Positions 16,991-55,769 of a stretch of 55,769 bases of DNA are shown piece after piece. This DNA is from a bacterium (lineage in GTDB: Bacteria; DUMJ01): positions 1-55,769 of the forward strand of contig JACIXS010000010.1 in assembly GCA_014360335.1 (NCBI GenBank), read 5' to 3'. The notes under the pieces were generated by a model that saw only the letters and a program-made list of their open reading frames with translations, ran no database searches and was not told where the DNA came from. Made by a program: the position numbers and the translations under genes. The stretch's first letter is position 1; each line of letters starts with the position of its first letter.

Positions 16991-16991
16991 T

Positions 16992-21269: not shown

Positions 21270-21345
21270 GCGGGAATAGCTCAGGTGGTAGAGCATCAGC
21301 TTCCCAAGCTGAGGGCCGCGGGTTCGAGCCCCGTTTCCCGCTCCA
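21270..21345 (+). tRNA. tRNA-Gly (CCC); CCA encoded
   Basis: Acceptor GCGGGAA/TTCCCGC, anticodon arm TCAGC-TTCCCAA-GCTGA, discriminator U. Confidence 0.92.
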
Positions 21346-21356
21346 ATATTTTTTAT

Positions 21357-21431
21357 GCCGACGTAGCTCAGCGGTAGAGCAGCTGATTCGTAATCAGCGG
21401 GTCGTCCGTTCGAATCGGATCGTCGGCTCCA
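21357..21431 (+). tRNA. tRNA-Thr (CGU); CCA encoded
   Basis: Acceptor GCCGACG/CGTCGGC, anticodon arm GCTGA-TTCGTAA-TCAGC, T arm GTCCG-TTCGAAT-CGGAT. Confidence 0.92.
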
Positions 21432-31288: not shown

Positions 31289-31300
31289 AAGGGAAAAACT

Positions 31301-32380: not shown

Positions 32381-33742
32381 CTACCAGCCGTACCTCTCTG
32401 GACCCCAAGACTTCTTTATGTACTCCTGCTTTGCTAGTACAAGTATATTGGATGGCACGTCCTCGTAGGCTATAACACCTGGTCCTACTAGGCTGTAACA
32501 GCCTACCTTTACTCCAGGCATTATTATGGCATTTACCCCAGTCCTAGAGAAGTTACCTATGTATGTGGCATTGGCTCCTTCTTTTGGAAATTCAGGACGA
32601 CCCTTTATCCTATGAATAGTGGACCTATCGTCAAACCTTAATGTTCCGCATACTGTAGCAGCACCTATATCTACAGAGTGTCCAAAGACTCCGTACAGTT
32701 CAGAGTAATGGACTACGTATACATTATCAAAGAAGACCCCTTCTATCTCTGCACAATGTCCTATATGACACCTATTCCCTATAGATGTATAAGCTCCTAT
32801 CTGCGGATAGTTATAGATAAAGCAGTTATTCCCCACAACGCAAGGCCCAGTAAATATAGCTCCATTAGTTACAGTAGTATTGTCTCCGACTATGATATTA
32901 TCCATAATTACAACCCTTGGACCTATATGAGAATTCTTTCCTAAGACTATTTTGCCCTTTATGTGGGCATCTTGAGATATAGTGGAACCTTCTGGAATTA
33001 TATCTTCCTCTATAGATTTACACAGAAAGTCTATATATCTTCTATTTGCTTCGAGGATATGCCAAGGTTTATCTATATCAACAAAGAAACCTTCAGTTTC
33101 TATAGCATAAACATCTAACCCTTCCTCTATCATTACCTGAAAACTTTGGCTTAATTCAATCTCTTGTGGGGGCATACCTCCAACAGGGACATTCCTCATA
33201 AAGTTTGGTGTCTTCTCTAAGTATTGCAAATACTCTTTCCCTATAAAATAAACCCCACACATCCTGTAAGAACCAGCTCTCGGATGCCCTTCTATAGAGG
33301 TCACCTTACCATCACTAATACGTGGACAAATCCAGTCCTGAGGTTCTTCCTTATCTAGAGGAGATATAAGACAGGCAAGTCTAAAGCCTTCAGATTTTTC
33401 TATAAATCTCTCTAGGTCTTTCGGATGAATAACTATGTCTCCATACAACACTAGGATATCATCCTGAGGTATAACCTTTAGGGAGTCTATTAATGACTTG
33501 GCTGTTCCTAATTGCCTTTCTATCTCGATGTAGTTTATATTAGAAAAATCTCTTAAGGCATACTTTATATCCTCTTTTAGATAGCCAACTACCACATATA
33601 TATCGAGATTGTACTTCTCCAGTTCTTCTACTAAGAGTTTTACTACCGGTTTATTGGCAACCGGGATAGTAGCCTTAGGCATCGTTTCACTGTAGGGCCA
33701 TAATTTTGTCCCGAGTCCTCCAGCTAAGATTACCGCTTTCAT
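32381..33742 (-). CDS. Bifunctional-type sugar-1-phosphate nucleotidyltransferase with C-terminal left-handed beta-helix (GlmU/ST0452-like)
   Basis: 453 aa. MKAVILAGGLGTKLWP NTP-transferase start. Hexapeptide-repeat C-terminal half. Confidence 0.8.
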   Translation of the reverse strand: MKAVILAGGLGTKLWPYSETMPKATIPVANKPVVKLLVEELEKYNLDIYVVVGYLKEDIKYALRDFSNINYIEIERQLGTAKSLIDSLKVIPQDDILVLYGDIVIHPKDLERFIEKSEGFRLACLISPLDKEEPQDWICPRISDGKVTSIEGHPRAGSYRMCGVYFIGKEYLQYLEKTPNFMRNVPVGGMPPQEIELSQSFQVMIEEGLDVYAIETEGFFVDIDKPWHILEANRRYIDFLCKSIEEDIIPEGSTISQDAHIKGKIVLGKNSHIGPRVVIMDNIIVGDNTTVTNGAIFTGPCVVGNNCFIYNYPQIGAYTSIGNRCHIGHCAEIEGVFFDNVYVVHYSELYGVFGHSVDIGAATVCGTLRFDDRSTIHRIKGRPEFPKEGANATYIGNFSRTGVNAIIMPGVKVGCYSLVGPGVIAYEDVPSNILVLAKQEYIKKSWGPERYGW

Positions 33743-34746
33743 AATCTCTCCTCCCTATTTATCTTCAGATTCTCAAAGACTGTGGATTCTACATTACTAT
33801 AGACCTTAGGAATTATCTCTCCAAAGCAATAGTCAAAAGATAAGAGTAAAGCACCCACTACGGGTTCATACCTTGGTAGGACTATATCTGCATTTGGATT
33901 AAAAGAGTGTAATTCTGCCTTTATAAAATCTGTTAGTAGTGGACCCTTGGCTTTAAAGATGCTTCCTCCTAAGACAACTTTGACCTTTTCCCTCTGTAAT
34001 GAAAGTCTTTTCATAATAGCGTATGCAGATAAAGCAGTCTCTCTTGCTATCATCTTTACTATCTCTACAGAGACCCTATCACCCTGATAGGCACATTCAA
34101 ATAGTATCGGAGTTAAGAGTAAAACCTTACTCCTATCTATCTTACCATAGTAAAGTTTTTTGGCTAGAGAGACAAAATCGTTCTCTTGGAAAAACTCTAA
34201 GACCTTTTCGGCGAGTATTGTCTCTTCCCCTCTGCCATCATAAGCTCTAAAGACCCTGTGAAGTATCTCTCTTGAAATATCTCCTGAACCTCCCCAGTCT
34301 CCAAACATATATCCTTCTCCAAAGAGTCTTGCTTCTTCTCCAGATTTTCCAATCCCTACCGCATTAGTTCCCGTTCCCATTATCACTGCAATACCGTAAG
34401 ACTCTTCTATTATCCCTGCCTTAAGGGCTGCTAATGTATCATTCTTTATTATTACCTTGCCTACTTTCTGTAACTTATTCACAGCTTCTTCTAACATTTC
34501 GAAATCTTCTGGAAAGTCCGCACCGGCGAGACAGAAACATCCTACATCTGCCCTTTCAATCCCTGCCATACTAAATGCCTCTGAGATTGCCTTATCAATC
34601 TCTTTCATAGCAGACTCTAAACCAAAAACCTCATAATTACCAGTTCCCCCTGAGCCAAACCCCAATACTCTTCCTTCTTCATTGGCAACGAGACAGTGAG
34701 TCTTAGATGCCCCTGCATCAACACCAAGTAGATACATACTCATCAT
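33739..34746 (-). CDS. BadF/BadG/BcrA/BcrD-type ATPase, N-acetylglucosamine-kinase-like sugar kinase
   Basis: 335 aa. YLLGVDAGASKTH and IMGTGTNAVG ASKHA motifs. ATGA overlap with the GH4 stop. ATG 34737 is an alternative start. Confidence 0.75.
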   Translation of the reverse strand: MMSMYLLGVDAGASKTHCLVANEEGRVLGFGSGGTGNYEVFGLESAMKEIDKAISEAFSMAGIERADVGCFCLAGADFPEDFEMLEEAVNKLQKVGKVIIKNDTLAALKAGIIEESYGIAVIMGTGTNAVGIGKSGEEARLFGEGYMFGDWGGSGDISREILHRVFRAYDGRGEETILAEKVLEFFQENDFVSLAKKLYYGKIDRSKVLLLTPILFECAYQGDRVSVEIVKMIARETALSAYAIMKRLSLQREKVKVVLGGSIFKAKGPLLTDFIKAELHSFNPNADIVLPRYEPVVGALLLSFDYCFGEIIPKVYSNVESTVFENLKINREERL

Positions 34747-36011
34747 CTCCTAAAGAATTGGGGGAGAAATTCTCTATTCTCCTCCAGAATCCTTTCTAAA
34801 AGACCATCAGCTACCGCCTTTGCTCCTACTAAAGGATGAACTAGAAGTGCCTGCTTTGCCTTTGTTATATTGCCCTCTACTGCTGATTCTACTGTTAGCT
34901 GTTCATAATACTTTACTGTCTGGGTTAACCCTCTTATGTAAGGTTCCAATCTTCCCATACTAATGGGCATAGCTCCATTACTACCTATAACACAAGGGAC
35001 CTCGACAACTCCATTATCGGGAAGGTCTGTAATTGAGCCATTATTTAATACATTTACTATTTGTATATCTTTTCTATCTAAATAGATAGACTTCATAAGT
35101 TCTACCGCTGCATCTGAGTAGTGAGCTCCACCCCTCTGACTCAATTCTGGAGGCTTTTCTTTTAAAGATTCATCTTTATACTTCTCTAGAAGCTTCTCCT
35201 CTACCTCTAACACTATCTCCCCTCTTGTTTTCTCAGAATTCTTTTGGGTTTCTAAGACTTCATCCCTAAAATAATAGTAATGTAAGTAACTATTTGGTAT
35301 CATATCTATCAGTTCTACTATTTCTCTCTCCTTCTGGGGAAGATTACCTTTTATCTTCTCTATGACCTCCTTAGTAACATCATTTCCCTTATGATATACC
35401 TTTCTCACCCAACTTAGATGATTTAAGCCAACGTAATCTAAATAGATATCCTTTATATCTATACCTAGAATACTGGCGAATCTATAGAAGAAGTTTATAG
35501 GAACATTGCACAGCCCTATAGTTTTTACTTTAGAATATCTCAACAGTGCCTCAGTAACTATTCCAGAAGGATTTGTAAAGTTTATAAGCCATGCATTATT
35601 GGTTAATTCTTCAATGTCTTTTGCTATATCTAACATAACAGGGATTGTCCTTAATGCATTGGCAAAACCTCCAGCACCTGTTGTCTCCTGCCCTATAATT
35701 CCAAACTCAAGAGGGATTTTTTCATCTCTTATCCTTGCTTTAACTCCTCCAACCCTTATCTGTGATATGACAAAGTCTGTCCCCTCTAAGGCTACCTTTC
35801 TCTCTTTAGTAAGTATTAATTTAATAGGGGCATTTGAACTCTCAATCATTCTCCTTACTAGACCACCAACAATATTGAGTTTCTCATCATCTATATCTAT
35901 TAGCCGTAGCTCTTTTACTGGGAATACATCAGTATTCTTAATAACTCCTTCAACTAGCTCGGGGGTATATGTGCTTCCCCCACCTATTACAGTAAGTATT
36001 AATTGTCTCAT
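34743..36011 (-). CDS. Glycoside hydrolase family 4 (NAD/Mn-dependent, 6-phospho-glycosidase-like)
   Basis: 422 aa. TVIGGGSTYTPELV Rossmann start, CNVPI, family-typical length. Confidence 0.85.
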   Translation of the reverse strand: MRQLILTVIGGGSTYTPELVEGVIKNTDVFPVKELRLIDIDDEKLNIVGGLVRRMIESSNAPIKLILTKERKVALEGTDFVISQIRVGGVKARIRDEKIPLEFGIIGQETTGAGGFANALRTIPVMLDIAKDIEELTNNAWLINFTNPSGIVTEALLRYSKVKTIGLCNVPINFFYRFASILGIDIKDIYLDYVGLNHLSWVRKVYHKGNDVTKEVIEKIKGNLPQKEREIVELIDMIPNSYLHYYYFRDEVLETQKNSEKTRGEIVLEVEEKLLEKYKDESLKEKPPELSQRGGAHYSDAAVELMKSIYLDRKDIQIVNVLNNGSITDLPDNGVVEVPCVIGSNGAMPISMGRLEPYIRGLTQTVKYYEQLTVESAVEGNITKAKQALLVHPLVGAKAVADGLLERILEENREFLPQFFRR

Positions 36012-36019
36012 AGCACCTC

Positions 36020-37366
36020 CTATTCTTCAAGGGTTGGGATGATAATCCCTATACGCTTTCCTATTCTACTTTCTCTACCTGCAGGATCTATAGCCTTACA
36101 GGTAACAAGATTTCTAGAAAAGGCTGGGACATTCTTTATATAGAAGAATCCGTCAGCCTTAGAATAACATTCTCCTCTTATAGAATCATTTACTATTACC
36201 TGAATCTTTACACCCGGGTCTGCGGTTCCTACAATCTCCAAAGTCTTATCTGTAATATTCATCTTTATAGAGGTAATTGTAGGTGGATTTACTGTCTCTT
36301 TTGGAGGGACGATTTCTAACTGTGGAAGGATGATCTTGAACTCTTTCATATCCGCAAGGGCAGTATTATTTAAGCCTTTTATGACTGGAAGTTTCATCCA
36401 TACATTACTATCGCCAAATTTACCTTCTACTGTATATCCTGGTCTAATGAGTCCTCTAAAGAGTGGGAAAGCCCCCTCTAAGAAATTCTCATTTATAGGT
36501 GCAAGTATCATCCACTGTGTTGCTGTCCAAACCCCTTTAAGTTCAGGCGTATTTGCGTGTCTATTCGGTATGATTTGAAATCCTCCAGCCTCCTCTAGAG
36601 TAGCATCAATATACTCTCCAGTAAAGACCCCAGATGTAGAGATATCTATCACTCCGGGGTGATTAGCCCTTACCGAACTGGGACAGGCAAATAGAGTTCC
36701 TCCAAATCTTCCAGTTCCTTTTACAGCCCTCAATACCTTAGCTACTACTTCTTTTTCTGTGTCAGAGTAGCAGATATAGACATTACCATCTACCCTGTTT
36801 TCAAAGAGAATCTCTTTAGGCATTATTAAAGGTGCGGAAACTATTATTATAAGTTTATCCCCTATACTCGGGGTATAATTATCTGGAATTGGGGAAAGCT
36901 CTCCATCCCTTTCTAAGAATACCTTATTACCCACAAATGGAGCCCATTCCCTAAAGATAAGTGTTCCCCCCTCTATATTCGTTAGGATTCTGCTGTTTTG
37001 CTCAATAGAGGTATCAGTTACTCTAGGTATGACACTTATAGTTCTTCCAGATTTTTCAGGGGTATTTATTGGGTCTATTTCACTCTTTCCAACCGTTATA
37101 TGTATAGCATTCACCGCACTAGCAGAAACTACCCCATTCTCTATGTATCCACTAGCCCTAAATGCATCAGGATTATAAGATAGAGCAGGTCTATCCACTT
37201 TGCCGAGAGCTATCCATCTATTTCCTTTATCTATACTAACCTCTATTACTCCTGAGTAGTCATTAGTTATCCTTAGTCTAAATAGCTCTATTTCTTCGTT
37301 TGCATAAGAGATAGAAGCAGAGAATAGTATGATTAAAGTTAGCAAAAAAGAGATTATATACTTCAA
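36020..37366 (-). CDS. Secreted protein of unknown function with C-terminal Ig-like domain
   Basis: 448 aa. Signal peptide MKYIISFLLTLIILFSASISYA. No motif I recognise. First gene of the GH4 operon. Confidence 0.6.
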   Translation of the reverse strand: MKYIISFLLTLIILFSASISYANEEIELFRLRITNDYSGVIEVSIDKGNRWIALGKVDRPALSYNPDAFRASGYIENGVVSASAVNAIHITVGKSEIDPINTPEKSGRTISVIPRVTDTSIEQNSRILTNIEGGTLIFREWAPFVGNKVFLERDGELSPIPDNYTPSIGDKLIIIVSAPLIMPKEILFENRVDGNVYICYSDTEKEVVAKVLRAVKGTGRFGGTLFACPSSVRANHPGVIDISTSGVFTGEYIDATLEEAGGFQIIPNRHANTPELKGVWTATQWMILAPINENFLEGAFPLFRGLIRPGYTVEGKFGDSNVWMKLPVIKGLNNTALADMKEFKIILPQLEIVPPKETVNPPTITSIKMNITDKTLEIVGTADPGVKIQVIVNDSIRGECYSKADGFFYIKNVPAFSRNLVTCKAIDPAGRESRIGKRIGIIIPTLEE

Positions 37367-39850: not shown

Positions 39851-41014
39851 ATGATTAAGGGAAAAGAGGGTATAGCCCTTATATTGGCAATAGTTTTTAT
39901 GTTGGCAATAACTATACTTTTAACGGCAGTTCTACTCTTATCTACTCAAGAGATAAATGCTACTCAGCTTTATTTAGATAGTAATAAGGCTTTCTACTAC
40001 GCAGAGGCTGGGGTAGAGTATGCCCAGGCAAGGATACTAAAGGCTGATCAGGAAGGAAACTTGGATGATAACTTTCTAAGTGAATTAAGTAGTATTAATA
40101 CAGATAGTTATCTAAAATCTAGCTTTAACGATGTCAACATTAAAAGTGTCAACCTTACTGTGGTTCGTGGAGATTCTGCTCATAAATACAGAATGAGTTG
40201 TGAAGTTAAATATAATAAGGCTACAAGAAAAATTACTAAAGAGATAAGGATATTGTATCCTGGTTTATGGGATAAGGCAATGGCAAGCAATGGAGATATT
40301 AAGCTTGATGTAAATAATGCTCAAGGAGGAATTTTAGTAATTAATGGAAACATACACTCTAATAGTAATATTACTAGCAAAGATCCTATAACTATTAATG
40401 GGAATGTCTCTGCTACTGGAACTATAGATAATCAGATTAGTGTTAGTGATGGAAAGAGTAAGACCCCTAATGTACCATCCCTTTCTTTCCCAGATATAAA
40501 TTTTGACGAATATAGAGCAAAATCAACTTATATTTATAACAATGAGACCGACTTTGTCAATGCCCTTAGGAGTGGGCTAATTCAGACTAGCCCTAATGAA
40601 GTTATCTACGTTTTTATAGATGGGGATTTTCACTTAAGAAACATAGAAGGATTGAATGTTTCTGGCCTTTGTATAACTGTAAACGGAGATATACATGTAA
40701 ATAATACTACTAACATGAAGATAGACGGTGGTTCTAAAATGGTTACTTTTATATCAAAGAATCTAAAATATAACAATGATGCTAAGATTACTTTTGAAAA
40801 CTGTATAATTTATACAGAGTACAATACAGATTTCACAAATATGAAAGCTGATGTTACTATACAGAATGGTGCAGTATATGCTAAAAATGGATATATAGGA
40901 TTGGAGAATATAAAAAAGACATTTACAATAACTCATGGAAACTGGGGTTATCCTCAAGTTTCTCATCTATTTGATCAATACCAAGTTGAACTTTGGTCGG
41001 ATGCTAGCATATAA
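39851..41014 (+). CDS. PilX-N-like membrane-anchored protein with beta-helix-like repeat C-terminal region
   Basis: 387 aa. N-terminus GIALILAIVFMLAITILLTAVLLLSTQEINATQLYLDSNKAFYYAEAGVEYA resembles the minor-pilin PilX N-domain. C-terminus rich in N/I/T repeats (INGNIHSNSNITS, INGNVSATGTI, VNGDIHVNNTTN). Very AT-rich: hand counts give 22-27% G+C in two 60-nt samples. Confidence 0.55.
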   Translation: MIKGKEGIALILAIVFMLAITILLTAVLLLSTQEINATQLYLDSNKAFYYAEAGVEYAQARILKADQEGNLDDNFLSELSSINTDSYLKSSFNDVNIKSVNLTVVRGDSAHKYRMSCEVKYNKATRKITKEIRILYPGLWDKAMASNGDIKLDVNNAQGGILVINGNIHSNSNITSKDPITINGNVSATGTIDNQISVSDGKSKTPNVPSLSFPDINFDEYRAKSTYIYNNETDFVNALRSGLIQTSPNEVIYVFIDGDFHLRNIEGLNVSGLCITVNGDIHVNNTTNMKIDGGSKMVTFISKNLKYNNDAKITFENCIIYTEYNTDFTNMKADVTIQNGAVYAKNGYIGLENIKKTFTITHGNWGYPQVSHLFDQYQVELWSDASI

Positions 41015-45505: not shown

Positions 45506-45517
45506 GAGGTGATGGGT

Positions 45518-46198
45518 ATGAAGCGTTCTGAGATAAATAGAATCTTAAAAGAGTCTATCTCTTTTATAGAGAGAATGAACTTTCATCTTCCTCCATTTGC
45601 TTATTGGACACCTGAAGACTGGGAAGACAAGGGGGAAGAGTATGATGAGATAAGGGATAATATGTTAGGTTGGGATATAACTGATTTTGGTAAGGGAGAT
45701 TTCTATAGAGAAGGCTTAGTCCTTTTTACTATAAGAAATGGAAATCTGAATATAAAGAAATACATAAAGCCATACGCAGAGAAGATTCTTATAGTTAGAG
45801 AAGAGCAGATAACGCCTTTTCACTTCCACTGGAGCAAGATGGAAGACATTATAAATCGTGGTGGAGGAAACGTATTGATACAGCTCTATAATTCAACCGA
45901 GGATGGTAATCTTGCAGATACACCTGTTCATGTCTCAATGGATGGGAGGAACTATACCGCCCCTGCAGGAACGATTGTAAGGTTAACCCCTGGAGAAAGC
46001 ATTACACTATTCCCTAAAGTCTATCATAAATTCTGGGGAGAGAGAGGAACCGGTTTTACCCTCTTAGGAGAGGTATCTTCTGTAAACGATGATAATACCG
46101 ATAATAGATTCTTAGAACCAATTGGCAGATTCCCAACAATAGAAGAAGACGAACCACCATTTAGACTATTAGTTATAGACTACAAGAAGGGAGTTTAA
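45518..46198 (+). CDS. D-lyxose/D-mannose ketol-isomerase (cupin)
   Basis: MKRSEINRILKE...PPFAYWTPEDW...FHFHWSKMEDIINRGGG, typical of the D-lyxose isomerase family. ATG 45518 follows SD AGAGGTGA. Confidence 0.8.
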   Translation: MKRSEINRILKESISFIERMNFHLPPFAYWTPEDWEDKGEEYDEIRDNMLGWDITDFGKGDFYREGLVLFTIRNGNLNIKKYIKPYAEKILIVREEQITPFHFHWSKMEDIINRGGGNVLIQLYNSTEDGNLADTPVHVSMDGRNYTAPAGTIVRLTPGESITLFPKVYHKFWGERGTGFTLLGEVSSVNDDNTDNRFLEPIGRFPTIEEDEPPFRLLVIDYKKGV

Positions 46199-46200
46199 AT

Positions 46201-47106
46201 ATGAAAGAATTAAACGAAATAATGTATAAGGCATGGAAACTTGGGATACTTATCCCTGCGTTTAATTCCGCTTACCTTCCTATGGTAAAGACTATAGTTG
46301 ATACTCTAAAAGAAGAGAGAACATTCGGTCTTGTTGAAGCATCCCGTCCTGATGTGGAAAAGTTTGGAGCTAGAAGTTTTGCCAGTGTAGCAGAGGAGTT
46401 CTATAAATATGCGGACCTTTACTATACAAGGCTTCACCTTGACCATGTCCCTGTCATAGATGAGGACGGAAACCTAGTCGATTGGGAGAAACTTATAAAA
46501 GAAGGTTTAGAGTTGGGATATCACTCTGTTATGATTGATGGTTCTAGGCTACCATTAGAGGAGAATATATCCTGTACGAAAAGGGTTGTGGAGATAGCTC
46601 ATTCTAGAGGTATTCCAGTAGAGGCTGAGCTTGGAGCAGTCTTTGGGCATGAAAAGGGCCCATTACCTCCATATGAGGAGCTCTTTAACTCCAAAAAGGG
46701 ATTTACATCTATAGAATCCGCAGAAGTCTTTGTGAAAGAAACCAATGTCGACTGGCTTTCTGTAGCTATTGGAAATATCCATGGGGCGATATCTGGTGTA
46801 GCAAAGGACCAAAAGAAAATCTCAGCGAAGCTTGATATAGAGCATCTAAGGAGATTAAAAGAAGTCACTCAGAGACCTTTGGTTCTTCATGGAGGCTCTG
46901 GTATAAGGATAGAATACCTTAAGTCTGCTATAGAGAATGGGATAACAAAGATTAATATAGGCACAGAGATAAGGCAGGCTTACGAGAATGGATTAAGAGA
47001 GAGTAATAATGATATATCTTTTGCCTGCGCTAAGGTGGCAGACAAGATAAGAGAACTTATAGCATTATACGGGATAAGGGGGAGTGTAGATAGGCTATAC
47101 TCTTAA
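46201..47106 (+). CDS. Class II ketose-bisphosphate aldolase family (FBA/tagatose-bisP aldolase-like)
   Basis: 301 aa. IPAFN, LHLDH, VMIDGS, EAELG, HGGSG motifs. Confidence 0.8.
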   Translation: MKELNEIMYKAWKLGILIPAFNSAYLPMVKTIVDTLKEERTFGLVEASRPDVEKFGARSFASVAEEFYKYADLYYTRLHLDHVPVIDEDGNLVDWEKLIKEGLELGYHSVMIDGSRLPLEENISCTKRVVEIAHSRGIPVEAELGAVFGHEKGPLPPYEELFNSKKGFTSIESAEVFVKETNVDWLSVAIGNIHGAISGVAKDQKKISAKLDIEHLRRLKEVTQRPLVLHGGSGIRIEYLKSAIENGITKINIGTEIRQAYENGLRESNNDISFACAKVADKIRELIALYGIRGSVDRLYS

Positions 47107-48108
47107 GACTACTTTCAATATTCCGCTATCTTTCTTAGCTAATTCTTCAAATGCCTCTGGTCCCTCTTCAAGAGGGACTACTTTACTTAACATTTCTTCT
47201 ATATTTATCCTCTCTAGAAGGCTTACTGAATCTTTAAACTCTTCTATTGTAAAGGTATAAGTTCCAAGTATCCTTAACTCTCTAGTTACTATATTCTGCA
47301 TATCTATTATAATATTCTTCATAGAATTTCCAACAAATACACAAGTTCCCCTATTTTTAAGAATATTTAGAGCTTGGTTTACCGTCACCTCTAACCCGAC
47401 CGCCTCAAATGCTACACTTATACCATCTGGGATAGCTTGAGATATCAATGCTTTTATATCTTCTCTATCTGGATTCAAAGCAATATCTCCTCCAAGTCTT
47501 TTAGCTATCTCGAGGCGTCTATCGTTTATATCTGAAACTATAATGTTTCTTGCACCACCAAGTTTTACTATCTGAAGAATCAATAGCCCAATAGTTCCAG
47601 CTCCAACTATCAAAACATTCTGATTTAAAATATTCCCAGCTGTCTTTACTGCTCTATAAGCTACCGAGAGTGGCTCTAGGAATGTTCCTTTAATAAAGTC
47701 TACACTATCTGGTAGTTTCAGTATGTTCTCTTTAGGAACAGCCACATATTCAGCCATAGCACCATTTACGTTCATTACCCCAAAGACAGTTCTATTAGAG
47801 CAAAGATTCGTTAACCCAACCTTACAGAATTCACATCTGCCACAGAATCTTGCAGGATAGACAACTACTCTATCACCTATAGAGATATTCTCTACCTCTT
47901 CCCCTAAGGACTCGACTATACCAGTAAACTCGTGCCCCATAACCATTGGAGGGATTCTTCTACCAGTTATACCAAGGTATCCGTGGACATCAGAACCACA
48001 TATGCCACAGGCTTCTACTTTAACAAGGACTTCATTTCTACCAATCCTTGGTTTCTCTATGTTGGATACTCTTATATCCTTTGGACCATAATACACTAAT
48101 GCCTTCAT
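47095..48108 (-). CDS. Zinc-dependent medium-chain polyol dehydrogenase (sorbitol/L-iditol dehydrogenase-like)
   Basis: 337 aa. CGICGSDVH, GHEFTG, CGRCEFC, VGAGTIG. 12-nt convergent overlap with the aldolase gene. Confidence 0.85.
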   Translation of the reverse strand: MKALVYYGPKDIRVSNIEKPRIGRNEVLVKVEACGICGSDVHGYLGITGRRIPPMVMGHEFTGIVESLGEEVENISIGDRVVVYPARFCGRCEFCKVGLTNLCSNRTVFGVMNVNGAMAEYVAVPKENILKLPDSVDFIKGTFLEPLSVAYRAVKTAGNILNQNVLIVGAGTIGLLILQIVKLGGARNIIVSDINDRRLEIAKRLGGDIALNPDREDIKALISQAIPDGISVAFEAVGLEVTVNQALNILKNRGTCVFVGNSMKNIIIDMQNIVTRELRILGTYTFTIEEFKDSVSLLERINIEEMLSKVVPLEEGPEAFEELAKKDSGILKVVLRV

Positions 48109-48243: not shown

Positions 48244-48272
48244 TTGACAAATTAAGTAAGAGATAATATAGT
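48244..48272 (+). promoter_or_regulatory. Promoter TTGACA-N17-TATAGT upstream of the UroD-like pair
   Basis: Consensus -35, 17-nt spacer, TATAGT. SD GGAGGA at 48297-48302. Confidence 0.7.
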
Positions 48273-48305
48273 TAAAACTAGTATGATTATATATCGGAGG
48301 ACTTT

Positions 48306-49391
48306 ATGACTTCTAGGGAAAGGTTTTTAAATCTCCTAGAATATAAGCCGGTAGATAGATGTATCTATGGGGTAGGAATGGGTGCTTGGCCCGAAACTAT
48401 CGAACGATGGAAGAGTGAGGGCTATGACCCTTCTAAAGAGCCTCTTTTTGATACTGATCGTTGGGTGTGGATAGGTCACTGGTTCTTCCCTAATCCACCA
48501 TTTGAAAAGAAGATAATTGCTGAGGATGATAGAACTGTTCTCTATATAAATCATGAAGGAATACTTATGAGAGAAAGAAAAGACAATCCAATGTCATCAA
48601 TGCCTCAATTTATTAGATTCCCTGTTGAGACTAGAGAAGACTTTCTTAAATTTATGAAGGAAAGGATGCAACCTGACCTCGCAAGCAGAATAGGAAGGGA
48701 TTATGTTGAAAAGTTACAAGGCTATAGAGATAGGGATTATCCATTAATAATTATTTCTGATAGGTGGGGAGGATTCTTTGGTCCATTGAGAAACCTAACT
48801 GGCATAGAAAGACTCTGTATGCTATTCTATGATGACCCTGCCTTTGTAGAAGAGATGATGGATGCTATAGCAGACTTTATAATAGCGATGATGGATCAGA
48901 TACTGAATTACACTGATATAGATATGTATGGTTTCTGGGAGGATATGGGTTATAAGACAGGACCATTAATCAGTCCAGATTTTGTTAGGAGGTATATGTT
49001 TCCTAGGTATAGAAGGGTGGTAGATTTCTTACATTCCCGTGGAGTAAAGTGGATCTCTCTAGATAGTGATGGAAATATAACATCCCTGATTCCTATATGG
49101 CTAGATGCAGGTATAAACTTTATATACCCATTTGAAGTTCAGGCAGGAATGGATGTAGTAAAAGTTAGGAAGACATTTGGAAAAGAGTTAAGGATGATGG
49201 GAGGAATAGATAAGAGAGCTATAGCTGAGGGACCAGAAGCGATAGAAAGAGAGCTTAGAAGAGTAGCTCCACTAGTAGAAGAAGGAGGATACATTCCCGC
49301 CCCAGACCATAGCCTTCCTCCCGATGTATCATTCAGTAACTATTGTTACTATATGAATAGATTAAAAGACTTAGTGGAAGGGAGAATATGA
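48306..49391 (+). CDS. Uroporphyrinogen decarboxylase (URO-D)/MtaA-CmuA-family protein, paralog 1
   Basis: 361 aa. TIM-barrel family pattern (FWEDMGYKTGPLISP..., LDSDGN, AGMD, GGID). Confidence 0.75.
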   Translation: MTSRERFLNLLEYKPVDRCIYGVGMGAWPETIERWKSEGYDPSKEPLFDTDRWVWIGHWFFPNPPFEKKIIAEDDRTVLYINHEGILMRERKDNPMSSMPQFIRFPVETREDFLKFMKERMQPDLASRIGRDYVEKLQGYRDRDYPLIIISDRWGGFFGPLRNLTGIERLCMLFYDDPAFVEEMMDAIADFIIAMMDQILNYTDIDMYGFWEDMGYKTGPLISPDFVRRYMFPRYRRVVDFLHSRGVKWISLDSDGNITSLIPIWLDAGINFIYPFEVQAGMDVVKVRKTFGKELRMMGGIDKRAIAEGPEAIERELRRVAPLVEEGGYIPAPDHSLPPDVSFSNYCYYMNRLKDLVEGRI

Positions 49392-49392
49392 G

Positions 49393-50442
49393 ATGACTAA
49401 GAGAGAAAGAGTAGAGAGGACTCTGGATCTACAGGAGACGGATAGGGTACCTGTTTATGACTTACTCTATAATGATGCAGTAATACAGTACTTTACAGGG
49501 AAAGTCCCGCCACTTGGTGAGGAAGGACTAAAAATAACCTGTGAAGCTATATCTAAGATGTTAGATATGACAAGAAGTGTTACTGGACCTTCAGAGCCTG
49601 GAATTTATAAAAGAGAAGATGGTTGCATTATTAGACGCGAAAGATGGACATCTTGGATAGAAGAGAGACCTTTCAAGGATGAAGAAGGGGCAAAGAAGTG
49701 GGTGATTGAGAGTATAGAGAGATTAAAAAAGACAGATATTGAAGAGATGGCAAAGAGGTATCTAGAATATTTCAAAAAAGTATTAAGCTATATAGGGGAC
49801 ACGGTAGTTTTACATGCACAAACAGGTACAGGACTTGATGAGTTAAGACATAGCTTGGGGATAGAATTATTTTCGTATCTTTCGGCTGATGAACCTGAGC
49901 TTATCTCTGAATACCTTGATGCATATACTGATCTACAGGTCAAATTTATACATAGGATAGCTAATAGAGAACTATCTCCTTGTGCCCTTACCTATGGAGA
50001 TATTGCATATAAGGAAAGGTTGTTACATTCTCCAGATTGGCTTAGAAGAGAGTTCTTTCCTAGACTAAAGAGACTAAATGATGCCTGGCATGAGCACGGG
50101 ATAAAATGTCTGTTTCATTCGGATGGATATATAATGGATGTAATACCAGACCTTATAGATACAGGAATTGATGGTCTAAACCCAATAGAGGCAGTGGCTG
50201 GAATGGACCTAAAAGAGGTAAAAAGACTCTATGGAGACAGACTTTTTATAGCTGGTGGAATAGATGTAAGTCAACTCCTCTCTAATGGAACACCAGAAGA
50301 GGTTAGAGAAGTCTGCGAAGAGGCGATTAAGATAGGATATCCAGGATATTTTATAGGTTCCACAACAGAGTTAGATAATGGTGCAAAGTTAGAAAATGTT
50401 TTGGCTATGGTGGAGACTGCCTGGAATATTACATTCGAGTAG
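49393..50442 (+). CDS. URO-D/MtaA-CmuA-family protein, paralog 2
   Basis: 349 aa. Same family pattern (FHSDGY, GLNPIEAVAGMD, GGID). Starts 1 nt after the paralog 1 stop. Confidence 0.75.
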   Translation: MTKRERVERTLDLQETDRVPVYDLLYNDAVIQYFTGKVPPLGEEGLKITCEAISKMLDMTRSVTGPSEPGIYKREDGCIIRRERWTSWIEERPFKDEEGAKKWVIESIERLKKTDIEEMAKRYLEYFKKVLSYIGDTVVLHAQTGTGLDELRHSLGIELFSYLSADEPELISEYLDAYTDLQVKFIHRIANRELSPCALTYGDIAYKERLLHSPDWLRREFFPRLKRLNDAWHEHGIKCLFHSDGYIMDVIPDLIDTGIDGLNPIEAVAGMDLKEVKRLYGDRLFIAGGIDVSQLLSNGTPEEVREVCEEAIKIGYPGYFIGSTTELDNGAKLENVLAMVETAWNITFE

Positions 50443-50472
50443 TTTTTATTCTTTAATTTACTGAAAAGAGTG

Positions 50473-50500
50473 TTGCATTACTTCAAATTGTTTATATAAT
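50473..50500 (+). promoter_or_regulatory. Internal promoter TTGCAT-N16-TATAAT upstream of the corrinoid protein gene
   Basis: Hexamers at 50473-50478 and 50495-50500. SD GGAGGTG at 50529-50535. Confidence 0.6.
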
Positions 50501-50540
50501 ATGATAGAATAGGTTAAAATACTTTTTGGAGGTGTAATAG

Positions 50541-51179
50541 ATGGTAAATTTACAAGAAATTTCGGAAGCTCTAATTGTTGGCAATGCCAAAAAAGTTAGA
50601 GAGCTTGTTGAGCAGGCGCTGAAGGAGGGAGTATCACCTAAGGAGATTCTAGATAAGGCATTAGTCCCTGGAATGAATGTGGTCGGTGAGAAGTTTAAGA
50701 ATAACGAATACTACGTCCCAGAAGTCCTTATAGCAGCAAGGGCTATGCATGCAGGTATGGACCTTATAAAGCCACTTTTAACCCAGACAGGTGCTTCTTA
50801 TGTTGGTAAGGTTGTTATAGGAACGGTAAGAGGAGACCTCCATGATATTGGTAAGAACCTGGTAGCTATGATGTTAGAGGGAGCTGGTTTTCAGATAATA
50901 GACCTTGGAGTGGATGTGCCTCCAGAGAAGTTTGTAGAAGTTGCCAAGAATGAAAATGTTGACATAGTAGCGATGTCTGCTCTATTAACTACCACAATGC
51001 TTGCTATGAGAGATACGATAAATGCCCTTAAAGAGGCAGGGATAAGAGATAAAGTTAAGGTTATGATAGGAGGAGCTCCAGTAACCCAGAGATATGCCGA
51101 TGAGATAGGTGCAGATGGATATGCACCAGATGCGGCTACTGCGGTAGAAAAAGCAAGAGAACTATTAGGCTTGAATTAA
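50541..51179 (+). CDS. Corrinoid (cobalamin-binding) methyl-carrier protein, MtaC/MtbC-like
   Basis: 212 aa. N-terminal helical cap, then GDLHDIGKNLV (DxHxxG), MSALLTTT (SxL), MIGGAPV (GG). Confidence 0.88.
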   Translation: MVNLQEISEALIVGNAKKVRELVEQALKEGVSPKEILDKALVPGMNVVGEKFKNNEYYVPEVLIAARAMHAGMDLIKPLLTQTGASYVGKVVIGTVRGDLHDIGKNLVAMMLEGAGFQIIDLGVDVPPEKFVEVAKNENVDIVAMSALLTTTMLAMRDTINALKEAGIRDKVKVMIGGAPVTQRYADEIGADGYAPDAATAVEKARELLGLN

Positions 51180-51197
51180 TGATTGATTTGATATTGT

Positions 51198-51240
51198 GAG
51201 TAGGGGAGTTTATATGGATTCCCCTACTCATTATTTTTTT
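51198..51240 (+). terminator. Rho-independent terminator after the corrinoid protein gene
   Basis: GAGTAGGGGA-loop-TCCCCTACTC followed by ATTATTTTTTT. Confidence 0.85.
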
Positions 51241-52736
51241 CATAGAGAAAATCTTGTCATTTCATGCATAAGTTCTTTTAGCTGTGCATAGGTTCTCTTA
51301 TACTTATCAAAGTAGAAATCGTAAATAGGCTTATTCCTTAGATTAGGTTCTACTATACTTTTTATCTTTACCATCTGACTTGCCCCTTCTTTTAGATCTT
51401 TGAAGTACCCTGCTCCAACCGCACCAGCTATAGCAGAACCAAGACATCCAGCCTCTTCGACCTCAGGTATATAGATAGGCACTCCACAGACATCAGCATT
51501 TATCTGAAGCCATAATTTACTTCTAGTTCCTCCACCACAAGCATAAATCTCTCCAATATTTACACCTTTCGAGGTGATAGCTTCTATAATATTTCTTGTT
51601 CCATAAGCGGTTCCTTCATATATAGCTCTGTGTATATGATAGGGGGTATGTTTTAGGCTTAAGCCCCAGATGATTCCTCTAGCTAGAGGGTCTCTAACGG
51701 GACTTCTATATCCTTGCCAGTATTCTAAGAGAACAAGTCCTTCAGATCCAGGAGGAATCTCACTAGCTTTACTGTCTAGTTCTTCATAAGATGCACTTGT
51801 AAACTGGTCAGTGAACCATTTAACGACAGAACCAGTAGATGTCTGACCTCCCTCGAGGACCCACTTACCCTTTATAAGAGCATCTGGATATGGACCCCAG
51901 ACTCCGGTGCCAAATACTGCATTATCAGTAATAACCATATGACAAGTAGAGGAACCCATAATCATACCCATCTTATTAGGGCTAGTGATATTTATCCCAA
52001 CCATTGCTAAGTACGCATCTATTCCTCCTTCTGCTACAGGAATATTAGGGGGCAAACCCAACTCTTCTGCTACAGAAGGCAAGAGATAGTCTGAGACTTC
52101 TCCAATGCTTAATATATCTTTGGGCCATTTCTCTAAAAGTTCTTCCATATCCAATTTTTTAAGTAGATTTCTAGGAAAGCCACCCAATACAGATACGTAG
52201 TTCCACTTACATGTGGCGTTACATAGTGAGATTGTCCATCTTCCCGTGAGCCTATACATAAGATAATCCGTTGATTCTACTATATACCTAGCTCTATTAT
52301 AGATTTCTGGTTCATTCCTCTTTAGCCACATAGCCTTTGGGATCATCCATTCGGCTGATTCATCATCTCCAGCGTATCTTAGAACCTCATCTTTTGTCAC
52401 TGTCACCTCTTGAGCTTCTTTGAATGCCCTTACATCCATCCATAGAAGGGCTTTTCTTAAGGGGTTGCCATTTTCATCTAGAGGGACTACAGTACAAGCA
52501 GTAGCATCCAAACTTATTCCTTTGACCAATTTAGAATCTACTCCTGAATCTTGTAGGACTTTTTTCACTGTAAATTTCAATGCACTCCACCAATCGTTAG
52601 GGTCTTGTTCTGCCCAACCAGATGAAGGATAATAGATTGGATAATCCTTTGTAGCAAAGGCTAATGGCTTTCCCGTTTCATCAAATATACCTGTTCTTAA
52701 ACTCTGAGTTCCACAGTCGATGCCTATAAAATACAT
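51240..52736 (-). CDS. FGGY-family carbohydrate kinase (pentulose/ribulokinase-like)
   Basis: 498 aa. FIGIDCGTQSLR, WAEQDPNDWW, GGGTRSKLWLQINADV motifs. Confidence 0.88.
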   Translation of the reverse strand: MYFIGIDCGTQSLRTGIFDETGKPLAFATKDYPIYYPSSGWAEQDPNDWWSALKFTVKKVLQDSGVDSKLVKGISLDATACTVVPLDENGNPLRKALLWMDVRAFKEAQEVTVTKDEVLRYAGDDESAEWMIPKAMWLKRNEPEIYNRARYIVESTDYLMYRLTGRWTISLCNATCKWNYVSVLGGFPRNLLKKLDMEELLEKWPKDILSIGEVSDYLLPSVAEELGLPPNIPVAEGGIDAYLAMVGINITSPNKMGMIMGSSTCHMVITDNAVFGTGVWGPYPDALIKGKWVLEGGQTSTGSVVKWFTDQFTSASYEELDSKASEIPPGSEGLVLLEYWQGYRSPVRDPLARGIIWGLSLKHTPYHIHRAIYEGTAYGTRNIIEAITSKGVNIGEIYACGGGTRSKLWLQINADVCGVPIYIPEVEEAGCLGSAIAGAVGAGYFKDLKEGASQMVKIKSIVEPNLRNKPIYDFYFDKYKRTYAQLKELMHEMTRFSL

Positions 52737-52809: not shown

Positions 52810-52838
52810 TTGACATTTTCTAATTTTCAATGTAAAAT
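52810..52838 (+). promoter_or_regulatory. Promoter TTGACA-N17-TAAAAT for the LacI-family regulator gene
   Basis: Hexamers at 52810-52815 and 52833-52838. Confidence 0.6.
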
Positions 52839-52880
52839 TTGGATAGTTACATAGAAAATAATGCGATAAGGGGTAAATAG

Positions 52881-53885
52881 ATGACCGTTACCATAAAAGA
52901 GATAGCAGAAAGGTTAGGTGTTTCAACCGCTACTGTATCTAGGGCATTAAATAATACTGGTTATGTCAGCGAAGAGACGCGAAAGAAGATAATAGAAATT
53001 GCTGATGCACTAGGATATGAGAGATATAAAGAGAAAGAGGCTAGTAGGGTAAAGACCAATCTGGTAGGGGTAATCGTCTCTGACATAACAAATCCATTCT
53101 TTACCCAGATTGTTAGAGGTATTGAAGATGTCTTAAGCTCTTCTGGTTATAGTCTTTTGCTCTGTAATGCAGATGAGAATATAGATAAAGAGATTCATTA
53201 TCTTAAGGTGCTTCAGGATAAAAATGTTGATGGAATCATTCTTGTCCCGGCAGGTGGAGACCATAAAGGTATCAAGGATATAGTGAACAGAGGTATCCCA
53301 CTAGTACTAGTAGACAGATTGATAAACGGTTTGGATGTAGATGCAGTAATTATTGATAATGTAAGTGGTGCATATGAAGGTGTTTCGCATCTTATCTCTG
53401 AAGGTTACAGAAAAATTGGCATAATCATTGGTCCCCTAGAAGTAATGACAGCAAAGGAGAGACTTGAAGGATATAAAAAAGCACTTCAGGATAATGGGAT
53501 AGAGTTTAATGAAGACCTTGTGGAGTTTGGAGAGTATACCCAGGATGGTGGATATAGAGCTGCTAAAACCCTTATCAAAAAGGAAAAACCAGATGCCATA
53601 TTTGTGACGAACAATGTGATGACTACAGGGGCACTTCTTGCTATTAAAGAGCTTGGAATTAAAATCCCCAATGAGATAGGTATTGTTGGATTTGATGATT
53701 TAGAATGGGCTCCACTTATGAACCCTCCATTAACTACTATCTCTCAGCCCATATACTCAATTGGTTCAACATCTGCCCAGCTACTCTTACGAAGACTTGG
53801 GAGGAGTTCAAAGCTAAGAAAGGAGGTGGTAATCCTAAAGCCAAAGCTTATAATAAGAGAATCGAGTAAAAGGGGGAAGGGATGA
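52881..53885 (+). CDS. LacI-family transcriptional regulator
   Basis: 334 aa. HTH TIKEIAERLGVSTATVSRALNN plus a periplasmic-binding-protein-like sugar-binding core. Confidence 0.93.
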   Translation: MTVTIKEIAERLGVSTATVSRALNNTGYVSEETRKKIIEIADALGYERYKEKEASRVKTNLVGVIVSDITNPFFTQIVRGIEDVLSSSGYSLLLCNADENIDKEIHYLKVLQDKNVDGIILVPAGGDHKGIKDIVNRGIPLVLVDRLINGLDVDAVIIDNVSGAYEGVSHLISEGYRKIGIIIGPLEVMTAKERLEGYKKALQDNGIEFNEDLVEFGEYTQDGGYRAAKTLIKKEKPDAIFVTNNVMTTGALLAIKELGIKIPNEIGIVGFDDLEWAPLMNPPLTTISQPIYSIGSTSAQLLLRRLGRSSKLRKEVVILKPKLIIRESSKRGKG

Positions 53886-53948
53886 GGAAGAAGGAAGTTT
53901 AGAATTCCTTACTTAAGAATAAAAAACATTTTGAGGAGGTACCTTGTA

Positions 53949-55532
53949 ATGTTTACTAAGAATAAAAGATTTATATGTATTTTTGTGATTTTCTTGTTGT
54001 TAATGTTATTGATGAACGTTTCTTCTATTGCAGCTACTAAAAAATGGCAAGCATTACTCGATCCTAAGAAGCCAATCAGGCTTAAAGCAGCAATAATGTA
54101 TACTAATCTTCGTCCCAATATGGATACTTCGGATATTTGGAAGTACGTTAAAGAGAAGACTGGTATAGAATTTGAAGTTACTATTTTAAAGAATCAAGAT
54201 CAGGTCAATTTGATGTTTGCTAGTAGAGATTTTCCTGATGTAGCATTTAACATTGGAGCTCCTGTTAACCTTCTGATTGAAGCTGCTAAAGCTGGTGATC
54301 TGTTCTGTTTGGATGAGCTCTTACCTATTTATGCTCCAACATGGTATAACTTCTTCAGAGCTAAGGAAAACAATCTAGCTAACAAAGTTTCTTTAATTAA
54401 TGGGAAACGATATACTTTACCTTTTATAGACTTTGCTCCTTATGATAGAGATCTCCGCGATCAGTGGTTTATTAACAATACTTGGATAAAGGAATTAGGA
54501 CTTAAAATTCCTAAGACGACTAAAGAATTTAAAGAAGTATTACGTATATTTAAAAATAATGCTGGTAGAGGAAGTATTCCTAGAAACGTCCTTCCTTTCT
54601 ATTTTATATTTGATAATTGGGTAGGAGGACAATTTGATATATATGGTACTTTTGGTGTAATAGTAACCACAGGTGAGTATCTGGCTGTAGAAAAGGGTAA
54701 GGTAAGATATCAAGCTGTTAATCCGTCTATAAAAGAACCATTAAAATATCTTAGGGATCTATATGCTGAAGGGTTAATACTACCCGAAATCTTTACCGAT
54801 GATTTTAGTACCTATTTAGCAAAGACAAATGCTAATCCTCCTATGGTAGGTTCATATTTTTCTTATGAGAATCGTAATTTATCAGCTTTTGTAGCTATAC
54901 CACCCTTAATGTCCCCTACAGGCAGGAAGCCATTTATGAGGCGTCAGACGTATATACCCAATCCGCCTCATGCCTTTATGATATTCTCTAAGAATCCTTA
55001 TCCTGAAGCTACATTAGCTTTTGCTGAATGGGTAATCTCAGATTTAGAAAATATGATGACATTTTCACGTGGAATTAAGGGTATAGTCTGGGACTTTACT
55101 AAAGATGGTAAGGTAATAGATATCTTTTGGGAAGAGTCGCCTGATAAGATGGCTAAATATTCTAAGCAGTTAGGATTATGGAATAGTGCCTTTGCTCTAA
55201 GAGATAGGAGATTTCATTCGAAGCTATATTACAATAAGTTTAAGGAAATAGAAGGAACTCGTGCTTGGAATTTTGAACGTATTTATAAGAATAATGTATT
55301 CCCTAGAGAGTTTAGTTATGTTGGAGGAATTTTATCAAAAGAAGAAACAGAACTTATGAATCAGATAGGTACAGATCTTACTAACTTACGTAAAGTTACA
55401 TTTGCAAAGTGGATCTCTGGTAAAGGAGATATAGATAAGGAATGGGATGATTTTGTAGCTAATTGTAAGAAGTTAGGTTTGGATAAGTGGCTTGAATTAA
55501 AGCAAAAAGCTTATGATATGGTAATGAAATAA
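53949..55532 (+). CDS. Extracellular solute-binding protein of a carbohydrate ABC importer (large LipO/YtcQ-like type)
   Basis: Start at ATG 53949 after SD GAGGAGGT. Signal-anchor FICIFVIFLLLMLLMNVSSIAA. About 525 aa, typical of large family-1 SBPs. Confidence 0.8.
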   Translation: MFTKNKRFICIFVIFLLLMLLMNVSSIAATKKWQALLDPKKPIRLKAAIMYTNLRPNMDTSDIWKYVKEKTGIEFEVTILKNQDQVNLMFASRDFPDVAFNIGAPVNLLIEAAKAGDLFCLDELLPIYAPTWYNFFRAKENNLANKVSLINGKRYTLPFIDFAPYDRDLRDQWFINNTWIKELGLKIPKTTKEFKEVLRIFKNNAGRGSIPRNVLPFYFIFDNWVGGQFDIYGTFGVIVTTGEYLAVEKGKVRYQAVNPSIKEPLKYLRDLYAEGLILPEIFTDDFSTYLAKTNANPPMVGSYFSYENRNLSAFVAIPPLMSPTGRKPFMRRQTYIPNPPHAFMIFSKNPYPEATLAFAEWVISDLENMMTFSRGIKGIVWDFTKDGKVIDIFWEESPDKMAKYSKQLGLWNSAFALRDRRFHSKLYYNKFKEIEGTRAWNFERIYKNNVFPREFSYVGGILSKEETELMNQIGTDLTNLRKVTFAKWISGKGDIDKEWDDFVANCKKLGLDKWLELKQKAYDMVMK

Positions 55533-55629: not shown

Positions 55630-55769
55630 ATGCAAAGAAATTTAAGTATTAAGTCTTATAAAAAAACGTATATAACACGAATTGTGGAAAACTATGAATT
55701 ATATTTATTTCTACTACCAGCTATTCTGTATCTTTTGATTTTTAATTATCTCCCTATGGCTGGTATTAT
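55630..55769 (+). CDS. Sugar ABC transporter permease (LplB/YtcP-like), N-terminal 46 aa only, runs off the right edge
   Basis: Own translation: MQRNLSIKSYKKTYITRIVENYELYLFLLPAILYLLIFNYLPMAGI. SD GAAGGGAG upstream. Confidence 0.7.
   Translation, partial: MQRNLSIKSYKKTYITRIVENYELYLFLLPAILYLLIFNYLPMAGI

Follow-up and report, generated by a model that had tools for sequence, protein, structure and literature searches.

In the three-component corrinoid systems Odm, Vdm, Mtv and Mto (O-demethylases) and CdmBCA (chloromethane), a TIM barrel of the UroD superfamily and a small MtaC-type corrinoid protein are encoded in one operon, and a substrate methyltransferase of this superfamily, such as CdmB, can do without zinc (PMC13222342). 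A single core corrinoid protein can serve several methyltransferases; that of the MtgBCD-type system of Ruegeria pomeroyi works with a substrate-specific demethylase as well as in methionine synthesis (PMC12478193). We analysed a locus with features of these systems in bacterial DNA of the GTDB lineage Bacteria; DUMJ01 (GenBank assembly GCA_014360335.1, contig JACIXS010000010.1), of which the whole analysed stretch of 55,769 nucleotides is referred to as the window. The locus encodes two UroD-superfamily proteins, P1 and P2, followed by a corrinoid protein, CP. It thus shares the basic layout of the three-component systems, but it has two UroD-like proteins where those systems have one, and it has neither a pterin-binding second methyltransferase nor an activase. 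The best explanation that we can offer, tentatively and with slightly less than even confidence, is that P1-P2-CP would be a corrinoid (B12)-dependent methyl-transfer module made of non-canonical UroD-superfamily parts. A preliminary description of this DNA had proposed such a module, and the proposal gains support from three observations: the operon is kept in the two closest species, P1 and P2 fall outside both HemE and MtaA, and a P1-like clade occurs in operons that encode the activase RACo and a CP homologue.

The three open reading frames, the cobalamin-binding signature of CP and the terminator reported in the preliminary description are all present at the positions it gave (Table 1). 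P1, P2 and CP are likely to form one transcription unit, because a strong promoter precedes P1, P1 and P2 appear to be coupled, no terminator was found between P2 and CP, and the only strong terminator of the region lies directly 3′ of CP. The predicted translational coupling is based on the single nucleotide that separates the P1 stop from the P2 start and on a ribosome-binding site, GGAAGGGAG, located within the 3′ end of P1. CP is preceded by a GGAGG ribosome-binding site. It had also been credited with a promoter-like element of its own, a claim that we do not uphold. The element has a perfect −10 hexamer, matches the −35 hexamer at 3 of 6 positions, and was not listed by the promoter scan. 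Since promoter-like matches in this AT-rich stretch barely exceed those in shuffled sequences (20 observed, versus 14.9 +/- 3.4), the element provides no evidence of a CP promoter. An internal transcription start before CP is possible.

Table 1. Positions of the P1-P2-CP locus and its flanks in the window, and composition of related operons in other loci.
Locus	Feature	Position	Strand	Remarks
Window	D-lyxose/mannose isomerase, class II aldolase, Zn-dependent dehydrogenase (left flank)	45509-48108	+, +, -	
Window	sigma-70-like promoter TTGACA-17-TATAGT	48244-48272	+	11/12 matches; 5′ of P1; likely operon promoter
Window	P1	48306-49391	+	361 residues; UroD superfamily, 'DxD...DH' clade; candidate substrate:corrinoid methyltransferase
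Window	P2	49393-50442	+	349 residues; UroD superfamily, 'HSD...TTE' clade, MtaA-like fold; candidate second methyltransferase component
Window	promoter-like element TTGCAT-16-TATAAT	50473-50500	+	weak; in the 98-nucleotide P2-CP spacer; indistinguishable from chance
Window	CP	50541-51179	+	212 residues; MtaC/MtbC-type corrinoid protein with four-helix cap and Rossmann B12 domain
Window	intrinsic terminator	51196-51240	+	16-pair stem at 51196-51231, then T run; serves the convergent CP and FGGY genes
Window	FGGY-family sugar kinase, pentulose/xylulose-kinase-like	51240-52736	-	exceeds no equivalog cut-off; also flanks the trio in L011 and L012
Window	LacI-family regulator	52881-53885	+	profile matches
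Window	large SBP_bac_1 solute-binding protein of ABC importer	53931-55532	+	Pfam match; kept in L011
Window	start of CUT1-type ABC permease	55630-55769	+	from translation; runs off window end
L170	UroD-RACo-CP			
L171	UroD-RACo, then CP			CP cut by contig end
L172	UroD-RACo-CP-homocysteine S-methyltransferase	6001-10780		
L173	UroD-CP-pterin-binding methyltransferase			Armatimonadota; no RACo; 6001-8999

The assignment of the three proteins to their broad families, which the preliminary description had made by eye, is borne out by profile hidden Markov models. P1 and P2 score 53.4 and 47.3 bits with PF01208 (URO-D), above its gathering score of 23.9, and CP matches PF02607 (B12-binding_2, 86.6 bits) and PF02310 (B12-binding, 109.9 bits) in a Pfam scan. 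CP also passes the cut-off of the NCBIfam model TIGR02370, 'methyltransferase cognate corrinoid protein' (223.7 versus 215.3 bits), and its translation contains the base-off/His-on motif in full: DLHDIG (DxHxxG), SALLTTT (SxL) and IGGAPV (GG). Among the window and the loci of the two closest species (L011 and L012), CP is 98.6% identical, versus 87-92% for P1 and P2, and CP thus appears to be under strong constraint.

P1 and P2 share only 29% identity over 228 residues, and are thus members of two old subfamilies. Their description as tandem paralogs is accurate in that they are adjacent and distantly paralogous, but not in the sense of a recent or tandem duplication. By sequence, each belongs to a separate, large, uncharacterised clade of the UroD superfamily that spans many phyla. 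With P1 as query, 2,139 clusters were retrieved at E <= 1e-5, and homologues at 65-93% identity belong to Armatimonadota, to Clostridia (among them Mahella australiensis) and to unclassified bacteria. P2 gave 1,678 clusters, and when one genome was scanned for each species, its homologues turned up in Armatimonadota, Planctomycetota, Poribacteria, Latescibacterota, Omnitrophota, Chloroflexota, Verrucomicrobiota, Christensenella and Oscillospiraceae. The P1 and P2 families, and a P1-like family described below, each give roughly 1,700 to 2,400 database clusters, whose members are annotated merely as 'uroporphyrinogen decarboxylase family protein'. (One P2 homologue, in L060, is split into two open reading frames, 4774-5418 and 5450-5806, either because it is a pseudogene or through a frameshift or an error of assembly.)

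This annotation raises the question of whether one or both proteins could be true HemE enzymes of haem or sirohaem synthesis. They share with HemE the Pfam family and the fold: in the AlphaFold models (predicted local distance difference test scores of 88.9 for P1 and 95.4 for P2), the top Foldseek matches of both are HemE and MtaA, with E-values of 1e-9 to 1e-14, which indicates a UroD-type fold. However, neither protein has an NCBIfam match to the HemE equivalog at E <= 0.01, the HemE structures are only 12-16% identical to them, Pfam scans of the window found no haem or sirohaem genes, and both families form multi-copy arrays in catabolic loci. We thus consider the HemE reading effectively refuted and its probability negligible.

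The other structural relative is MtaA. The methylcobamide:coenzyme M methyltransferases MtaA, MtbA and MtsA (TIGR01463) share an N-terminal DRxP motif with the P1 and P2 families, and the MtaA/CmuA type is the only NCBIfam family that either protein matches. The best structural match of P2 is MtaA (PDB 4ay7), with a template modelling (TM) score of 0.70-0.72. P1 matches HemE and MtaA equally, with a TM score of about 0.6, at which Foldseek cannot separate HemE-like from MtaA-like proteins. In sequence searches of the PDB, P1 has no match at E <= 1, and P2 matches MtaA with an E-value of 1e-4 and CdmB (9rui) with one of 0.1 alone or 0.3 as a profile, over about 70 residues, which is too weak for placement. 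Scores with TIGR01463 are far below its curated cut-off of 235.4 bits (33.8 for P1 and 59.6 for P2), and the zinc ligands are replaced in both proteins; score and motif together rule out canonical MtaA/CmuA enzymes. We also considered the Mlp clusters, which act in methyl-sulfur and methyl-selenium chemistry, and rejected them as a match, as their proteins, which exceed 25% identity to coenzyme M methyltransferases, are closer MtaA homologues and do not belong to the P1 or P2 clades (PMC10418091).

We defined the zinc-ligand columns by alignment to 'HICG' MtaA-like proteins from corrinoid loci, in which these columns contain His, Cys and Cys (His-x-Cys...Cys). In P1 they are occupied by Asp253, Asp255 and His335, with Asp334 just before the last (D-S-D...D-H), a pattern that is invariant in all 21 P1-clade sequences compared. 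In P2 they are occupied by His242, Asp244 and Thr325, with Glu326 just after (H-S-D...T-E), as in 79 of 81 P2-clade sequences. P1 and P2 could thus each keep a metal site with oxygen and nitrogen ligands instead of thiolates, and such ligand sets appear compatible with Lewis-acid activation of an oxygen leaving group. Because the zinc-thiol ligands are replaced, a thiol acceptor such as coenzyme M is unlikely.

A link between proteins of this kind and corrinoid chemistry comes from a P1-like clade. At two loci found through CP (L106 and L110), a P1-like protein with the motif D-C-D...D-H, which scores 254 bits against P1 with 37% identity, is encoded beside RACo and CP. Of the homologues found by a search with this protein, four at 63-79% identity were looked up in their loci (L170-L173, Table 1), and in all six loci the P1-like gene is accompanied by corrinoid machinery. 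This linkage is not circular, since four of the six loci were found via the UroD protein and not via CP. The corrinoid proteins of these loci are 62-66% identical to the CP of the window, and so lie within its closest tier of relatives. As in the known three-component systems, and in contrast to the window, the P1-like clade includes operons with RACo and with a pterin or homocysteine methyltransferase. The operon in L172 also resembles MtgBCD of Ruegeria pomeroyi, although there the substrate enzyme belongs to the MTTB family and not to the UroD family, and the window has no methionine-synthase parts. (The P1-like UroD-RACo-CP operons look as though an uncharacterised methyl donor feeds a split system similar to methionine synthase.)

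Furthermore, genes of the MTTB family lie directly 3′ of P2 homologues in three loci from several phyla (L087, 10810-12510; L089, 11159-12646; L019, 10810-11172) and nearby in two other P2 loci (L044 and L048). No corrinoid protein is found near the MTTB/P2 pairs of L087, L089 and L019. Taken together, the RACo-CP operons and the MTTB genes 3′ of P2 homologues make B12-dependent methyl transfer credible for this branch of the superfamily. By their position and by analogy with the P1-like clade, P1 and P2 are candidate substrate:corrinoid methyltransferases, and P1-P2-CP would represent a variant of the known corrinoid methyltransferase scheme, built from two large uncharacterised clades of the UroD superfamily.

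The MTTB genes also raise the possibility of an N- or S-methyl donor, for which quaternary amines, methylated amino sugars and methylthio-sugars are examples, with P2 acting downstream of an MTTB-type enzyme encoded elsewhere. In agreement with this, the best specific NCBIfam matches of CP, though under their cut-offs, are glycine-betaine and dimethylamine corrinoid proteins, and SBP_bac_5 transporters, which are of the peptide/opine type, precede P1-P2 in L013 and adjoin P1/P2-type genes in L014 and L060. However, there is no MTTB gene in the window, in L011 or in L012, most P2 loci have none either, and P2 is without the thiol-binding zinc site of MtbA and MtaA. We therefore regard an N- or S-methyl donor as quite improbable.

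We then considered how consistently P1 and P2 are associated with CP, and with the sugar genes around them, in related loci. The P1-P2-CP trio is intact in L011 and L012, despite differing upstream genes, and in these two species it is accompanied by the FGGY-LacI-SBP right flank, which only they share with the window. In L011, an SBP_bac_1 protein and two permeases directly precede P1-P2-CP on the same strand. The preliminary description had asked whether UroD-like, corrinoid and LacI/ABC/FGGY genes occur together in related genomes; they do in these two nearest species, but not at other P1 and P2 loci. A DxD...DH-type paralog accompanies P2 in 22 of 79 loci, in 13 of them directly adjacent, across several phyla. 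In L005, P1 follows a CUT1 transporter and is itself followed by a third UroD-like gene, then by P2 and a GH78 rhamnosidase. All-against-all clustering of open reading frames from 86 loci did not reveal a conserved P2 neighbourhood, as only UroD paralogs occur in more than about 9 loci. (The top 'cluster 1' of this analysis is a shadow open reading frame opposite P2.) Among the genes that do recur near the P1 and P2 families are those for CUT1 and SBP_bac_5 importers, GH78, GH140 apiosidase, GH20, heparinase-II/III-like proteins, DUF4838, sulfatases, GFO/IDH oxidoreductases, xylose-isomerase-like barrels, FGGY kinases and ADP-ribosylglycohydrolases. (Genes of the last family lie beside P1-like or P2 genes in L002 at 6632-8719, L041 at 6730-8958, L060 at 7080-10522 and L175 at 802-1608.)

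Several observations weigh against a corrinoid-dependent module. A CP homologue lies within 10 kb of P2 in 2 of 80 loci, which are L011 and L012, and CP is adjacent to P1 in 2 of about 16 independent loci, both from the nearest relatives of the window; within the same distance of six P1 loci from other lineages, no B12-binding gene was found. In the sister species L010 and L013 (86-91% identity), SBP_bac_5 and two permeases are followed by P1 and P2 with no CP. Even the P1-like clade is patchy in its linkage, since CP is missing from the surroundings of two farther homologues, which share 55-57% identity with the CP-linked clade. Conversely, the metagenomic proteins closest to CP (80 of them, at 56-70% identity) adjoin RACo, homocysteine S-methyltransferases, pterin-binding methyltransferases and zinc-type MtaA-like proteins, and no P1 or P2 orthologue was found beside them. 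The window itself contains no RACo activase (phmmer with the L110 RACo as query, and Pfam scans) and no pterin-binding, homocysteine or MTTB methyltransferase (phmmer and Pfam scans); the first description of the locus was thus right that a reductive activase and a pterin-binding methyltransferase are absent. As P1 and P2 are without the thiol-activating zinc site, a canonical second methyltransferase is missing from the window too. An Rfam search of the window found four tRNAs only, and hence no cobalamin riboswitch. (The tRNA genes lie side by side in two pairs, at 16916-17064 and 21270-21428.) Moreover, methyl transfer by MetE, another member of the superfamily, does not involve B12, and the UroD fold alone therefore does not imply the use of B12.

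The sugar genes around the trio bear on the proposed sugar pathway. The flank of lyxose isomerase, aldolase and dehydrogenase genes is absent beside P1-P2 from every related locus that we retrieved. An inverted repeat at 52823-52859 of the window (ATTTTCAATGTAA / TTACATAGAAAAT, with halves 11 nucleotides apart) overlaps the lacI promoter and is a candidate LacI operator; it occurs only in the lacI/FGGY intergenic region, with no copy upstream of P1 or CP, and its half-sites are found in the window at chance level. We therefore rejected a common LacI operator that would tie P1-P2-CP to the FGGY/LacI/SBP unit, for which this was the sole good inverted repeat. Conservation of the neighbourhood is thus partial: the trio and FGGY-LacI-SBP are kept in the two nearest species, but the isomerase/aldolase flank in no relative. 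These results do not support the specific proposal of the preliminary description that an O-methylated sugar is demethylated to feed the adjacent isomerase, aldolase and kinase.

A serious rival, which we consider unlikely on balance but worth weighing closely, is that P1 and P2 are B12-independent enzymes of carbohydrate catabolism (metal-dependent TIM-barrel isomerases, epimerases or hydrolases, or a MetE-like direct alkyl transferase) and that CP is a lineage-specific, incidental neighbour with a function of its own, for instance in a split methionine synthase. No corrinoid gene lies within 10 kb in about 97% of P2 loci or in any P1 locus outside the lineage of the window, and the ABC importers, GH78, GH140, sulfatases, GFO/IDH, xylose-isomerase-like, FGGY and ADP-ribosylglycohydrolase genes that recur around both families would fit such enzymes, as would the Asp/His/Glu triads, which resemble sites for hard metals in sugar enzymes. 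Relatives of CP at 56-62% identity are for the most part encoded beside homocysteine or pterin methyltransferases, and CP itself is set apart from P2 by 98 nucleotides that contain a perfect −10 hexamer. On the other hand, there is no terminator in this spacer, the trio is kept together in three species, and no other partner for CP was found in the window. The occurrence of the P1-like clade in RACo-CP operons and of MTTB genes next to P2 homologues also speaks against B12-independent enzymes, and the sole family-level affinities of P1 and P2, in sequence and in fold, are to UroD and MtaA and not to sugar isomerases.

The order of the genes, the signals of the operon, the domains, the replaced motifs and the ties of related clades to corrinoid machinery are direct observations, whereas the reaction itself is inferred. 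If P1-P2-CP is indeed a corrinoid-dependent module, this reaction might proceed as follows. A small methylated compound would be imported by a sugar-type ABC transporter and bound by P1, in which a divalent metal on Asp253, Asp255 and His335 would polarise the C-O (or C-X) bond. Next, CP-bound cob(I)alamin would attack the methyl group, yielding methyl-Co(III)-CP and the demethylated product. The role of P2 is the weakest step of this scheme: with His242, Asp244 and Glu326, it could pass the methyl group to a non-thiol acceptor, or it could methylate CP from a second substrate. For reductive reactivation, and for tetrahydrofolate or homocysteine as the final methyl sink, the module would depend on genes in other parts of the genome.

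The nature of the methylated compound can at present be guessed only from context. Sugar-type importers and carbohydrate genes recur near the P1 and P2 families across phyla, which makes a sugar plausible, though the case is circumstantial. An O-methylated sugar or glycoside is thus our leading candidate, albeit one that we hold with low confidence; 2-O-methyl-xylose, 2-O-methyl-fucose, 3-O-methyl-mannose, 4-O-methyl-glucuronate and 6-O-methyl-galactose are candidate substrates. The more specific proposal, in which P1-type and P2-type proteins would provide the catalysis of an oxygen-independent, corrinoid-dependent demethylase acting on the alkyl methyl ethers of sugars, is likewise doubtful. 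In such an enzyme, the hard-ligand metal site would take the Lewis-acid role that zinc has in the activation of methanol by MtaB, and most of the thousands of members that each family has among glycan degraders of many phyla would use a corrinoid protein and an activase encoded elsewhere in the genome. We found no report of corrinoid-dependent sugar demethylation, or of UroD-like genes in glycan loci, in the literature searched, nor any account there of how anaerobes remove methyl groups from sugars. The only characterised sugar O-demethylase that we found there is a cytochrome P450 that demethylates 6-O-methyl-D-galactose in marine bacteria and is encoded in glycan-utilisation loci (PMC6292453). 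That enzyme is an oxygen-dependent haem monooxygenase, unrelated in fold and chemistry, whereas the P1-P2-CP route would be independent of oxygen.

One locus of Mahella australiensis (L001; CP002360, 1252107-1273198) contains P1 and a P1-like gene amid genes for a GH78 rhamnosidase, a GH140-type apiosidase, two sulfatases, GFO/IDH and SBP_bac_5, a mixture that would suit a complex plant or algal glycan with rare, possibly methylated, sugars. GH78 rhamnosidases deglycosylate flavonoid rhamnosides, and they adjoin P1/P2 genes in L001 and L005. P1-P2-CP could accordingly demethylate aryl methyl ethers instead of sugar ethers, if methoxylated plant aromatics arrived as glycosides, such as methoxy-flavonoid rutinosides or lignans. 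The many invariant aromatic residues of the P1 clade would fit such substrates, and all characterised O-demethylases of the UroD superfamily use methoxylated aromatics (PMC13222342). Yet comparison with CdmB, as the representative of the MtvB/OdmB/VdmB/CdmB group, revealed no close kinship of P1 or P2 (E-values of 0.1-0.3 for P2, no match for P1), and the two proteins have no adjacent pterin-binding second methyltransferase or activase, unlike typical O-demethylase operons. Their hosts are glycan degraders of many phyla and not acetogens. An aryl ether substrate thus appears improbable to us.

Turning to the rest of the window, the isomerase, class II aldolase, dehydrogenase, FGGY kinase, LacI and sugar ABC genes that had been described around the trio were all confirmed by profile matches, with the D-lyxose isomerase family match reaching 346 bits. 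The remainder is ordinary chromosome, with genes for SHMT, RF-1, PPDK, IF-3, GH38, GH4 and others. A second carbohydrate cluster (28160-37366) encodes a GH38 alpha-mannosidase, a cupin protein resembling mannose-6-phosphate isomerase, a nucleotidyl transferase, a BadF/BcrA-type ATPase and GH4, as well as a protein of 448 residues without a Pfam match (36020-37366); together with the D-lyxose/mannose isomerase, this cluster gives the window a mannose theme. There are also open reading frames of 157 residues (11397-11870), with no Pfam match, and of 387 residues (39851-41014), with a hydrophobic N-terminus. A protein with a NAGPA (phosphodiester glycosidase) domain is encoded at 522-2417, and another near a P1-like gene in L174 (3757-4701), which may be a coincidence.

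The three UroD-like families are carried by Armatimonadota, Planctomycetota, Chloroflexota, Latescibacterota, Poribacteria, Omnitrophota, Verrucomicrobiota and Clostridia, and the operon of the window, together with the UroD-RACo-CP operons, offers good entry points for their biochemistry. If P1 and P2 proved to be B12-independent sugar enzymes instead, they would still represent large uncharacterised families with a distinctive metal motif. Methyl ethers of sugars block glycoside hydrolases and downstream catabolism. If the P1 and P2 families are B12-dependent demethylases, they would add a new class of substrates to the corrinoid methyltransferases, correct a widespread misannotation, and tie the turnover of glycans to the availability of B12.

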